Shown here one piece after another: positions 26,736 to 59,905 of a stretch of DNA of 64,000 nt. The position numbers and the translations under genes were made by a program. Where the stretch lies: assembly GCF_029227855.1 (NCBI RefSeq), contig NZ_CP074356.1. One strand, given 5' to 3'. This DNA comes from Escherichia coli. GTDB taxonomy: Bacteria > Pseudomonadota > Gammaproteobacteria > Enterobacterales > Enterobacteriaceae. The notes beneath the pieces were generated by a model. The model saw nothing but the letters and a program-made list of their open reading frames with translations, had not been told where the DNA came from and did not search any database. The first letter of the stretch is position 1. The number at the start of each line of letters is the position of its first letter.

Positions 26736-27530
26736 TCATAATAATTGCGGCGGCGCAAAGCGACGGTTGTTTAAGACGGGCAGTTGCGCGCGCACCTGAC
26801 GCACACGTTCGGGCGTCACTTCCGCCATAATGAGTGCAGGCATTTCTGACGCTGCCGCAATGGTGACGCCAAAGGGATCTATAATCCGGCTTTGCCCGAT
26901 ATTTTTGTTCCCGCACTCCCCCGCCGCCACCATATAACAGGTGGTATCCAGCGCACGAGCGGCAAGCAACGTTGACCAGTGATGCTCTTTGAGCGGCCCA
27001 CGAACCCAGGCGGCAGGAAGTACCAGGATTTCAGCTCCCTGTAATGCCTGTGCCAGCGCCAGCTCTGGAAAGCGTAAGTCATAACAGGTCATCAGACCGA
27101 CCTTCATCCCTTCCACCTCCAGTAACGGAGCTATTTCATTACCAGCATCAACATGGCGTGATTCCTGAATGGCAAATGCATCATAGAGATGCAGTTTGGC
27201 ATAACGGGCGACGATGTTTCCTGCCTGTAGCGCCACCAGCATATTCCATGCGCGCCCCGGCGTTGAAGGAACATGAATCGTCAGAATTGTCGTCATCATG
27301 TTACGTTTACTTTCTCGCCGTAAACGTCCGAGGAATTCGCCTTCCAGCAGCTGTGCTGATTTAACCGATAGATCTGCATCATGATCATCACGCGCCAACA
27401 ATGCTTCCGGCAGGACAAACAGCGAAACGTCGTTTTCCGCCGCCTGCGCCATCAACGAGGCACAAATCTCAGCGTTCTTTTCCCACACAGATGTAACAGC
27501 AAACTGTCCTGCAGCAACCAGCATTGCCAC
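26736..27530 (-). CDS. ybeM: Nit-family CN-hydrolase YbeM (deaminated glutathione amidase-like), intact
   Basis: 264 aa uninterrupted ORF with conserved Cys (CYDLRFPE) and Glu/Lys of the nitrilase triad. Confidence 0.85.
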
Positions 27531-27616
27531 CTCCTGTCAGAGTCGTAAAATTCGCCAACGACGATTATTCGGCGTTACACTTATCACTCATACAAATCAA
27601 ATAGCAGGATTTTGCA

Positions 27617-28000
27617 GTGTTACAACTTCTTTTAGCAGTTTTTATTGGCGGTGGTACGGGAAGCGTGGCGAGATGGCTGTTAAGTATGCGATTTAACCCG
27701 CTGCATCAGGCGATTCCGTTGGGGACGCTGGCTGCAAACCTGATTGGGGCATTCATCATAGGAATGGGATTCGCCTGGTTTAGCAGGATGACGAACATTG
27801 ATCCAGTGTGGAAAGTATTAATCACCACCGGATTTTGTGGCGGTCTAACAACCTTCTCAACATTTTCGGCAGAAGTAGTGTTTTTGTTACAAGAGGGCCG
27901 CTTAGGCTGGGCGTTACTGAACGTTTTCGTCAACCTTTTGGGGTCTTTTGCCATGACCGCACTGGCTTTCTGGCTGTTTTCCGCCTCAACCGCACACTAA
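27617..28000 (+). CDS. crcB: Fluoride channel CrcB/FluC
   Basis: 127 aa, four TM helices, GTG start. Confidence 0.92.
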
Positions 28001-28005
28001 AGACC

Positions 28006-28036
28006 AAAAAAAACCCGCTGATTAAGCGGGTTTTGA
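28006..28036. terminator. Bidirectional intrinsic terminator between crcB and cspE
   Basis: aaaaaaacccgct-gatta-agcgggtttt. Confidence 0.8.
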
Positions 28037-28053
28037 ATTCTTGCTGACGTATC

Positions 28054-28263
28054 TTACAGAGCGATTACGTTTGCAGCAGAAGGGCCTTTGGCACCGTTAG
28101 TGATTTCGAACTCTACGCGCTGACCTTCAGCAAGAGTTTTAAAACCATTAGTCTGGATTGCAGAGAAGTGTACAAACACGTCTTTGCTGCCGTCTTCCGG
28201 AGTAATGAAACCGAATCCTTTGGACTCATTAAACCACTTAACGTTACCTTTAATCTTAGACAT
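28054..28263 (-). CDS. cspE: Cold-shock-domain protein CspE
   Basis: 69 aa from [20 protein letters not shown]; RNP1/RNP2 motifs. Confidence 0.95.
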
Positions 28264-28437
28264 CAAAATTACCTTTACATGAAAAATAGACACAAATGCT
28301 GTGTCGGTTACCAGTACACCAATTGTGGTACGCTTTGTCCAGTGCAACTTTACTAAAAAGTGATAAAAGTCGCGTTATTTTTGATGTTAATTATTTTACC
28401 CATTGATTTTAAAGAGTTTACTAAAATTTCATTTGTC

Positions 28438-28998
28438 TCAAAACTGAAAGCGCATCCAGGCAAAGTACACATTGCCATTGTTATAGGTACCCGGAATGTA
28501 GGTCATCTGAAAAGTCACTGGACCATAACCCACAGAGGCCAATGGCAGTAGAACCGGGAGAGGGATGTAATTCCAGTTATCGCGTGCCGTTACGCCAGCG
28601 GTGAATCCCAGTCCTAAATGAAAATTTTCATCCGCCAGCGGTCGCCAGGTACTTTCCCATCCGTATCCGGCAATCGGTTCCCATTTGTTCCACGAGTCCT
28701 TAAATGCCATGGCATACAGGCCATGCCAGTTTCCTTTTTCATCCCAACGCGACTGACCAAAACCGCCACCCCACAGTCGCTCGTTATAGCGATCGGTTTT
28801 TTCTTTGTCGTAAGCGAAACGAGCATGCCAGGTGATGGCAGGAATATATAAATCATAATGTTCAGGCTGTTGCCAGGTTTGTGTAATATTTTCTCCAAAC
28901 GTTGTCATCCACTCATCTGCGTTAGCAAAAACTTTACCAACGCTGATTAACTGAATAAAAACAAAGGAAAAGATAGCGACATATTTACTCACGTTCAT
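28438..28998 (-). CDS. pagP: Lipid A palmitoyltransferase PagP
   Basis: 186 aa outer-membrane beta-barrel with signal peptide [14 protein letters not shown]. Confidence 0.93.
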
Positions 28999-29483
28999 TT
29001 GTGACCATAAAACATTTATCAAAAATCTACTACTAGCATAGCAAAGCTACAATTAACATAACCTTAATAGCCCCAACATAAAGAACAATCTGAATAGCTG
29101 CTCTATTTATTTCCGCTTGTTTAAGTTAAATATTTCCGCGCATCGATTAAAGATGATGTATCGTTTTCTGCGATGGGAATAGTCAAAAAAGAAAAACCAA
29201 GTATTTTTTGATGACAAAATGCAACCAAGGAAAAATTTCTTTATTTTTTAATTGGATACAAAAATCACCTTAACGAAGAATATAATATATATCGTCAACC
29301 CATGCTCATGGCAGATTATTTTCTGAGCACGCAACCGCAGCTAACACCATTGCTATTAACAAATTTGCATCAATCCGCCATCAATTTACACACATTATTA
29401 TGTGGTAATTGCCAAACGCTAAATATGCGTTTTGTTATCTATGTATAAAAACAGCAACTTCAATGTCTTAATGGCAGTTTTTC

Positions 29484-29497
29484 TTGATTTTAATCAG
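29484..29497 (+). promoter_or_regulatory. Candidate FNR site upstream of dcuC
   Basis: TTGAT-TTTA-ATCAG, 9/10 match to TTGAT-N4-ATCAA, about 96 bp upstream of dcuC ATG. Confidence 0.5.
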
Positions 29498-29586
29498 CAT
29501 TCACCGCCAATTTATTGGGCATATTTTTTCCTTAAGTTTTAGGAATTTTTTATTATTTACTTTGGGGCCTGGAGACAGGAAAAATT

Positions 29587-30972
29587 ATGCTGACATTCAT
29601 TGAACTCCTTATTGGGGTTGTGGTTATTGTGGGTGTGGCTCGCTACATCATTAAAGGGTATTCCGCCACTGGCGTGTTATTTGTCGGTGGCCTGTTATTG
29701 CTGATTATCAGTGCCATTATGGGGCACAAAGTGTTACCGTCCAGCCAGGCTTCAACAGGCTACAGCGCCACGGATATCGTTGAATACGTTAAAATATTGC
29801 TAATGAGCCGCGGCGGCGACCTCGGCATGATGATTATGATGCTGTGTGGCTTTGCCGCTTACATGACCCATATCGGCGCGAATGATATGGTGGTCAAGCT
29901 GGCGTCAAAACCATTGCAGTATATTAACTCCCCTTACCTGCTGATGATTGCCGCCTATTTTGTCGCCTGTCTGATGTCTCTGGCCGTCTCTTCCGCGACC
30001 GGTCTGGGTGTTTTGCTGATGGCAACCCTGTTTCCGGTGATGGTAAACGTTGGTATCAGCCGTGGTGCAGCTGCTGCTATTTGTGCCTCCCCGGCGGCGA
30101 TTATTCTCGCACCGACTTCAGGGGATGTGGTGCTGGCGGCGCAGGCTTCCGAAATGTCGCTGATTGACTTCGCCTTCAAAACGACGCTGCCTATCTCAAT
30201 TGCTGCAATTATCGGCATGGCGATCGCCCACTTCTTCTGGCAACGTTATCTGGATAAAAAAGAGCACATCTCTCATGAAATGTTAGATGTCAGTGAAATC
30301 ACCACCACTGCTCCTGCGTTTTATGCCATTTTGCCGTTCACGCCGATCATCGGAGTGCTGATTTTTGACGGCAAATGGGGTCCGCAATTACACATCATCA
30401 CTATTCTGGTGATTTGTATGCTGATTGCCTCCATTCTGGAGTTCATCCGCAGCTTTAATACCCAGAAAGTTTTCTCTGGTCTGGAAGTGGCTTATCGCGG
30501 GATGGCAGATGCGTTTGCTAACGTGGTGATGCTGCTGGTTGCCGCTGGGGTATTCGCTCAGGGGCTTAGCACCATCGGCTTTATTCAAAGTCTGATTTCT
30601 ATCGCCACCTCGTTTGGTTCGGCGAGTATCATCCTGATGCTGGTATTAGTGATCCTGACAATGCTGGCGGCAGTCACGACCGGTTCAGGCAATGCGCCGT
30701 TTTATGCGTTTGTTGAGATGATCCCGAAACTGGCGCACTCTTCCGGCATTAACCCGGCGTATTTGACTATCCCAATGCTGCAGGCGTCAAACCTCGGTCG
30801 TACCCTGTCACCCGTTTCTGGCGTAGTCGTTGCGGTTGCCGGGATGGCGAAAATCTCACCATTTGAAGTCGTAAAACGCACCTCGGTGCCGGTGCTTGTT
30901 GGTTTGGTGATTGTTATCGTTGCTACAGAGCTGATGGTGCCAGGAACGGCAGCCGCGGTCACAGGCAAGTAA
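29587..30972 (+). CDS. dcuC: Anaerobic C4-dicarboxylate transporter DcuC
   Basis: 461 aa polytopic membrane protein. Confidence 0.95.
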   Translation: MLTFIELLIGVVVIVGVARYIIKGYSATGVLFVGGLLLLIISAIMGHKVLPSSQASTGYSATDIVEYVKILLMSRGGDLGMMIMMLCGFAAYMTHIGANDMVVKLASKPLQYINSPYLLMIAAYFVACLMSLAVSSATGLGVLLMATLFPVMVNVGISRGAAAAICASPAAIILAPTSGDVVLAAQASEMSLIDFAFKTTLPISIAAIIGMAIAHFFWQRYLDKKEHISHEMLDVSEITTTAPAFYAILPFTPIIGVLIFDGKWGPQLHIITILVICMLIASILEFIRSFNTQKVFSGLEVAYRGMADAFANVVMLLVAAGVFAQGLSTIGFIQSLISIATSFGSASIILMLVLVILTMLAAVTTGSGNAPFYAFVEMIPKLAHSSGINPAYLTIPMLQASNLGRTLSPVSGVVVAVAGMAKISPFEVVKRTSVPVLVGLVIVIVATELMVPGTAAAVTGK

Positions 30973-30980
30973 ATAGTCAT

Positions 30981-31010
30981 GCCGGAGGCAAGTTTCCTCC
31001 GGCTTTATCA
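30981..31010. terminator. Terminator hairpin between dcuC and dpiA
   Basis: gccggagg-caagttt-cctccggc followed by tttatcat. Confidence 0.7.

Positions 31011-58729: not shown

Positions 58730-59905
<1,176 letters not shown>

Follow-up and report, generated by a model that had tools for sequence, protein, structure and literature searches.

The pagP-dcuC intergenic region

The 64-kb stretch of DNA analyzed here (the window) originates from Escherichia coli and is oriented opposite to K-12. It carries the divergent genes pagP, located on the minus strand with an ATG start at 28998 (MNVSKYV..., 186 aa, a length identical to that of K-12 pagP), and dcuC, which starts with the ATG at 29587. The features found between both start codons are collected in Table 1. 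The gap has equal length in K-12 (655969-656556), where NC_000913.3 contains no annotation. It is the longest intergenic region of the window, also among its 10 divergent ones, followed by regions of 379 bp (citC-dpiB) and 371 bp (dsbG-ahpC). An earlier note on this DNA had described an unusually long gap of 564 bp beginning at 29023. Its length was indeed exceptional; the left border had to be moved to 28999, as 29023 follows an upstream in-frame TTG at 29022. The AT content, given there as about 70%, was determined as 67.7% for 29023-29586 and 68.0% for the entire gap, as compared to 48.4% for the whole window.

Table 1. Features located between the start codons of pagP and dcuC (window coordinates)
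Feature	Coordinates	Strand	Basis or remark
pagP-dcuC divergent intergenic region	28999..29586	.	588 bp, 68.0% AT
pagP -10 hexamer TATGCT	29035..29040	-	alignment to Salmonella -10; start predicted at ~29028
pagP PhoP-type box TATTAA-GGTTA-TGTTAA	29053..29069	-	alignment; third upstream hexamer TATGTT at 29080..29075
Fast-evolving spacer with A/T tracts	29086..29340	.	no conserved element found
48-codon ORF	29302..29448	+	judged non-coding
11-bp-phased direct repeat TGATGG-cggat-TGATGC-aaatt-TGTTAA	29356..29383	-	candidate OmpR-family (ArcA-like) operator
Escherichia-invariant block TTTTGTTATC..GTATAAAAACA..CAATG..TTAATG	29430..29473	+	between repeat and FNR site
FNR binding site TTGATTTTAATCAG	29484..29497, centre 29490.5	+	sequence; published as FNR-bound; conserved
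Predicted dcuC -10, GGG+CATATT	29517..29525, hexamer 29520-29525	+	conserved spacing to FNR site
Only published dcuC 5' end	29549, -38 from ATG	+	454 reads, 4 reads (Mendoza-Vargas et al. 2009, supplement file 3)
dcuC ribosome-binding region GGAGACAGGA	29571..29580	+	read from sequence

Of 5426 complete E. coli genomes, 5413 contain a single match to the segment 28900-29700, with the best match (99.9%) in strain 118UI; this single copy per genome in 5413 genomes rules out a mobile or repeated element in the gap. About 5% of the gap positions differ between the window strain and K-12, none of them within the FNR site. Published coordinates refer to U00096.2, as stated by Myers et al. (2013; PMC3688515), and were converted with an offset of 777 to version 3 (pagP at 656557). 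This offset reproduced the position of the FNR site exactly and was also checked against fnr.

Strain 23AR1101 (NZ_CM132250.1, locus L090, 1374-2548) carries an IS5-like ISKpn26 element between pagP and dcuC. Nearly the whole gap (window ~28999-29490) is removed or displaced in this strain and only 94 bp adjacent to dcuC still match, so that loss of the FNR site and of the pagP promoter, or their separation from the genes, is possible.

The region is very probably an ordinary divergent control region of E. coli that has already been characterized. The literature already reports the FNR site, FNR-dependent expression of dcuC, PhoP-dependent expression of pagP and the coverage by H-NS; the remainder of the gap comprises known promoters, H-NS-bound filler and perhaps one further operator. 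The significance of the present analysis is small beyond a tidy annotation, with a promoter geometry, the neutral filler and a second conserved element as modest additions.

The FNR site upstream of dcuC

The 14-mer TTGATTTTAATCAG fits the consensus TTGAT-N4-ATCAA at nine of ten positions, and a consensus scan revealed it as the sole match with at most two mismatches within the gap. The earlier note had reported a near-consensus FNR motif at exactly this position. Taken by itself, the motif does not exceed chance expectation and is weak evidence: the window contains seven matches to the consensus with one mismatch, as compared to 2.4 expected from shuffled sequences. Its significance derives from position, conservation and published ChIP data and not from the quality of the match.

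Myers et al. (2013; PMC3688515) list in their Table S6 the sequence CTGATTAAAATCAA at 655281, assigned to 'dcuC/pagP', as an FNR-bound site with a PWM score of 12.38. This site maps exactly onto 29484-29497 of the window and is the same 14-mer, CTGATTAAAATCAA being the reverse complement. Occupancy by FNR was found at dcuC by both ChIP-chip and ChIP-seq, with a summit at 655,298 (Table 1 of Myers et al. 2013; PMC3688515) which corresponds to ~29480 in the window, about 10 bp from the motif centre. A negative FNR ChIP had been named beforehand in the earlier note as the outcome that would speak against the FNR reading; in fact, the published ChIP is positive. Furthermore, dcuC is listed as directly activated by FNR (Table 1 of that study), is FNR-activated in RNA-seq (Table S8) and has an aerobic/anaerobic ratio of 0.05 (Table S12), i.e. 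an about 20-fold anaerobic induction (Myers et al. 2013; PMC3688515). The physiology of dcuC is covered by Zientz et al. (1999), as cited in Myers et al. (2013; PMC3688515).

We fetched dcuC loci from 80 species and analyzed 78 loci of Enterobacteriaceae. An FNR-like site at a distance of at most 170 bp from the dcuC ATG was present in 77 of these 78 species, most often as TTGAT-N4-ATCAG (52 species) or TTGAT-N4-GTCAG (17 species), and the FNR block was the most conserved stretch of the gap in an alignment of 16 genera. A chance match in AT-rich DNA, devoid of function, could be invoked with reference to the ~2.4 one-mismatch matches expected per 64 kb and the seven present, but published ChIP-seq occupancy, FNR-dependent expression and the retention of the site in 77 of 78 species, with constant spacing to a -10-like hexamer, make this explanation practically negligible. 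The FNR reading of the motif and the anaerobic activation of dcuC are correct, yet already published. The site of K-12 (Myers et al. 2013; PMC3688515) shares with that of the window the identical 14-mer, the distance to the dcuC ATG and the 588-bp gap, and the two do not differ in any important respect; a start site is missing from the published work, and a class II geometry is proposed here in addition.

Another match to the FNR consensus with one mismatch, GTGATATCAATCAA, is located at 59436-59449 at the start of fepB, in the divergent region of fepB and entC. An FNR ChIP peak has been reported at 624047 and assigned to fepB/entC (Myers et al. 2013; PMC3688515).

Geometry of the dcuC promoter

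Downstream of the FNR site, a conserved motif GGCAnATT was found. Its CAnATT hexamer (CACATT in 62, CATATT in 6 and CAGATT in 5 species) begins exactly 23 nt past the FNR 14-mer in 74 of 77 species, and the 16-genus alignment shows no indel between site and hexamer. The bases in between are variable, and the FNR site lies between 61 and 156 nt from the ATG, depending on the species. The first base of the hexamer lies 29.5 nt from the centre of the site, which corresponds to position -12 with an FNR site at -41.5. A position of about -41.5 is used at most FNR-activated promoters (introduction of Myers et al. 2013; PMC3688515). Given this constant 23-nt offset in 74 of 77 species and the variable distance to the ATG, the dcuC promoter is most likely of class II, with CATATT as -10 hexamer, a predicted start at ~29531-29535 and FNR at about -41.5.

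Under anaerobiosis, an FNR dimer binds TTGATTTTAATCAG within a dcuC promoter that would span approximately 29484-29535. Centred at -41.5, upstream of a weak -10 CATATT and in a promoter devoid of a -35 element, FNR would recruit sigma70 RNA polymerase, and transcription of dcuC would begin near 29532. FNR binding and FNR dependence have been demonstrated in the literature; class II geometry and start point we infer from conservation. An anaerobic sigma70 ChIP-seq peak at 655235 (Myers et al. 2013; PMC3688515) maps to ~29543 of the window.

Compared with the class II FNR promoters of Myers et al. (2013; PMC3688515), dcuC likewise has a single near-consensus site, no -35 hexamer and a -10-like hexamer at the exact class II spacing. 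It differs from them by the weak -10, which matches the consensus at four of six positions as CATATT and at three of six as CACATT, the version present in most genera. The FNR site departs from the consensus in its right half-site, which is ATCAG or GTCAG in nearly all species and never ATCAA.

The only published 5' end of dcuC disagrees with the class II geometry: it would place FNR at -58.5 and lies 17 nt downstream of the start predicted here. The -10 assigned to it, CTTAAGCT (Mendoza-Vargas et al. 2009), is invariant within Escherichia and unconserved outside. Myers et al. (2013; PMC3688515) remark for dcuC 'TSS not in peak region'. This 5' end is located 58 nt from the centre of the FNR site and hence not far from the motif; start mapping that puts the dcuC promoter far away had been named in the earlier note as an argument against its reading.

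Alternatively, FNR might activate dcuC in a class I-type manner, either from the published 5' end at 29549, with the site at -58.5 and close to -61.5, or via TATTAT at 29551-29556, with a start at ~29563 and the site at about -72; in this case, the conserved GGCAnATT would have another role, such as an operator for a second protein. This 5' end at -38 was actually measured, the sigma70 summit at ~29543 is compatible with such a start, and TTTTAGGA.TTTTTTATTATTT (29537-29558), which includes TATTAT, is invariant within Escherichia. YeiE, too, is reported from ChIP-exo to occupy dcuC at a position immediately downstream of RNA polymerase, where it represses. However, 29533-29558 is unconserved beyond Escherichia and its spacing to the FNR site varies (site-to-ATG 61-156 nt), whereas the offset to CAnATT is constant in 74 of 77 species. 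Moreover, the end at -38 is represented by four reads from cultures that were aerobic (Mendoza-Vargas et al. 2009), a condition under which dcuC is nearly off. Activation of the class I type appears unlikely on these grounds. A site at -58.5 is also off the helical-face positions of FNR, the class I spacings of FNR and CRP being -61.5, -71.5 and so on.

With the class II reading, comparative evidence would fix the geometry of the dcuC promoter where the literature provides no usable start site. Closer to the gene, the GACAGG core of the ribosome-binding region is conserved in most genera and the G at 29578 is invariant.

The pagP promoter

At the other end of the gap, the pagP promoter would occupy approximately 29028-29080 on the minus strand, with a PhoP-type direct-repeat box 12 nt upstream of the -10 hexamer TATGCT. 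The layout [T/C]GTTAA-N5-[T/C]ATTnA-N12-TAnnnT is common to Escherichia, Citrobacter, Enterobacter, Salmonella, Raoultella and Klebsiella. TATGCT occupies the same alignment columns as the S1-mapped Salmonella -10 TATTAT, and the E. coli repeats align with the footprinted PhoP box of Salmonella pagP, for which both a PhoP footprint and an S1-mapped start were reported (Zwir et al. 2012). The E. coli box has three mismatches to the strict PhoP consensus (T/G)GTTTA-N5-(T/G)GTTTA, with the repeat and its 12-nt distance from the -10 kept in six genera.

Salmonella pagP (architecture IV; Zwir et al. 2012) and E. coli pagP share the orthologous -10 and tandem 11-bp-phased hexamers upstream of it. 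In Salmonella, the box is located 23 nt from the -10 and consists of the hexamers TGTTTA/TGTTAA, whereas the best pair of E. coli, TATTAA/TGTTAA, lies one helical turn closer at 12 nt; this latter pair is conserved across genera. In Shigella, PhoP-P shifts a pagP promoter fragment in EMSA and pagP expression is lower in a delta-phoPQ strain. PhoP dependence has been demonstrated with the orthologues of Salmonella and Shigella; the E. coli coordinates derive from alignment and are to be taken as predicted positions.

A sigma70 ChIP-seq peak at 655742 (Myers et al. 2013; PMC3688515) corresponds to ~29036 of the window. In the same study, anaerobiosis raised the sigma70 ChIP signal at pagP from 37 to 366, with an aerobic/anaerobic ratio of 0.29 for its mRNA; pagP is absent from the list of FNR-dependent genes. 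No better ArcA-like TGTTA-N6-TGTTA match exists in the gap than the pagP PhoP-type box.

The central spacer and H-NS

Between the two promoters, about 400 bp of AT-rich DNA are coated by H-NS in vivo. H-NS ChIP-chip regions of K-12 (U00096.2 654590-655558 and 655584-656283) map to 29220-30188 and 28495-29194 of the window and are reported as covering the gap and running into both genes; the gap is also flagged 'HNS' by Shimada et al. (2014). The occupancy of this DNA, with 68% AT in a window of 48%, is taken from the literature.

Among eight diverse E. coli strains, 18% of the columns were variable across 29086-29470, with a peak at 29140-29320, as compared to 2.3% in the first 300 bp of dcuC, 5.7% in pagP, and 3.4% and 9.2% in the dcuC and pagP promoters, respectively. 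Since the variability of the spacer is similar to that of neighboring synonymous sites, the pagP-proximal half of the centre looks unconstrained. Most of the spacer is absent in Klebsiella and Raoultella, where the gap comprises 281-307 bp; the gap is also shorter in Salmonella arizonae (403 bp) and Citrobacter (~460 bp). Apparently, the pagP-near half evolves roughly neutrally and is dispensable in other genera. The dcuC-near half (29340-29483) is conserved, with zero to three variable sites per 20 bp in the eight E. coli strains and conservation also across nine Escherichia sequences, and probably carries further operators, most notably the candidate repeat at 29356-29383.

At 29160-29174, the variable stretch of the gap contains a perfect ATCG-N7-CGAT inverted repeat (ATCGTTTTCTGCGAT) that is itself enclosed in a longer repeat, CATCG...CGATG.

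Search for small RNAs and small proteins

The earlier note had considered the gap long enough to hold a small RNA or a small ORF. The evidence supports neither: we found no sign of a small RNA or a small protein encoded in the gap, and its middle appears as neutral filler with no hidden gene.

A Rfam search of 27500-31000 (E ≤ 1) gave no match within the gap, and folding of 120-nt sliding windows on both strands (32 tests) yielded an unremarkable lowest z-score of -2.1. A promoter scan of the gap detected no promoter-like pair on either strand. The terminator scan found no terminator-like site on the minus strand and three terminator-like hairpins, all on the plus strand; two of them are located inside dcuC and the third at 29414-29432 has lost its stem in K-12. 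Cappable-seq of K-12 (Ettwiller 2016) shows no start on the pagP-sense strand between 653077 and 656393.

These results bear on a candidate from Shigella flexneri, 'Ssr31', according to which the centre of the gap would encode a pagP-sense small RNA or a long pagP leader transcribed from an upstream promoter. For S. flexneri 301, a promoter-terminator pair was predicted in pagP direction at 694,274-693,980 (295 nt) and RT-PCR was positive (Wang et al. 2016); the PhoP/ArcA-like repeat at 29356-29383 also has the pagP orientation. However, RT-PCR alone cannot show a discrete RNA, and Wang et al. (2016) give neither a Northern blot nor RACE. The candidate stretch is the most polymorphic part of the gap, and neither a Rfam family, a fold with a z-score below -2.1, a minus-strand terminator-like site, a promoter-like pair on either strand nor a pagP-sense start in K-12 Cappable-seq was found. 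Past the repeat, no -10 is kept at a fixed spacing; strain NCTC11151 has a 1-bp deletion there and Enterobacter lacks a hexamer. We therefore consider a transcript of this kind very improbable.

Five small ORFs were compared in eight E. coli strains. All were rejected, being broken or startless in some strains and having no third-position bias. In favor of the 48-codon ORF it can be said that it is open in the window strain, in K-12 and in several others, that it is open in frame in one cryptic Escherichia clade, and that a locus tag is skipped between pagP and dcuC in several RefSeq assemblies. Yet this ORF contains a frameshift in the E. coli strains NCTC11151 and AVS0196, and O157 has ACG in place of its start codon; its variable sites are evenly distributed over codon positions 1, 2 and 3 (6/7/7), and a Shine-Dalgarno sequence is missing. 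By our own estimate, chance alone would provide about two ORFs as long as this one in a 588-bp sequence of such composition, and NC_000913.3 has no annotation of it. The remaining short ORFs contain stops in some strains or are conserved only through their overlap with the dcuC promoter. That the 48-codon ORF or another short ORF encodes a small protein is, hence, hardly credible.

The skipped locus tag (e.g. RS03670 to RS03680) occurs among the PGAP records of 118UI, CFSAN064035, 219 and 2014C-3307, with no skip in others; this suggests that a gene had once been called in the gap and was removed afterwards.

A conserved direct repeat in the dcuC-near half

The conserved half of the centre contains a direct repeat of three hexamers, one perfect (TGTTAA) and two weak (TGATGG, TGATGC), the cores of which are invariant in nine Escherichia sequences. 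Of 71 species, 33-36 have a TGTTAA in the same orientation at a distance of 121-140 nt upstream from the FNR site; other 10-bp bins hold at most five species, and the opposite orientation is almost absent. In Escherichia, Enterobacter and Citrobacter, about 125 nt separate the repeat from the FNR site downstream of it. Its Enterobacter version is TGATAAcaaaaTGTTAA, and Citrobacter has up to four phased hexamers. In Klebsiella and Raoultella with their short gap, the element at equal offset is the pagP PhoP box itself. The repeat was also considered as an old pagP promoter; this was ruled out, as no -10 is kept at a fixed spacing after it. Of the block at 29430-29473, invariant in Escherichia, Citrobacter and Enterobacter retain a part (TGAAAAAA-yAaCA).

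Judged by its pattern, the repeat is a candidate site for an OmpR-family response regulator, and TGTTAA would suit ArcA better than PhoP (TGTTTA). ArcA boxes consist of two to five TGTTAA direct repeats with 11-bp spacing (Park et al. 2013). The repeat resembles them in its three 11-bp-phased hexamers, one of which is perfect, and both genes have lower expression in an arcA mutant, dcuC by 4.1-fold and pagP by 2.8-fold (Park et al. 2013). It differs from them in that two of the three hexamers are poor; furthermore, Park et al. (2013) report an ArcA PWM match scoring at least 15 bits at some position of the dcuC/crcA gap and no ArcA ChIP peak at the dcuC/pagP gap. That 29356-29383 represents an undescribed response-regulator operator, with ArcA-P as the best fit, which serves both divergent genes is a tentative proposal, possible rather than probable.

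If true, the repeat together with the ArcA-like pagP 'PhoP box' would place succinate efflux (dcuC) and lipid A palmitoylation (pagP) under the control of anaerobiosis and redox state. Such a link would account for the anaerobic rise and the decrease in the arcA mutant of both genes as well as the FNR dependence of dcuC only, and the distal conserved element may be the missing direct input of ArcA to dcuC and pagP.

Other regulators and the neighboring cspE gene

Consensus scans of the gap for CRP, NarL, IHF, Fur, sigma54 and NtrC gave nothing convincing. The suggestion that the gap could hold additional operators was borne out in part, namely by the pagP PhoP box with its -10, the coverage by H-NS and the conserved direct repeat. 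For RpoN/NtrC, a gSELEX peak was reported at 655760; a sigma54-like TGGCAG-N5-TTTCT at 29309 cannot explain this peak because it is absent from K-12.

The strongest local Cappable-seq start (score 431) was reported at U00096.2 656590 (Ettwiller 2016). It maps to ~28186 of the window, about 75 nt inside the coding sequence of cspE (28054-28263, minus strand); the starts upstream of cspE (656393 and 656438) are weak in Cappable-seq. The sole Rfam match in 27500-31000 was a cspA thermoregulator on cspE (28006-28364, minus strand), which comprises the 5' UTR and coding region of this gene and scored 119 bits, above the gathering score.
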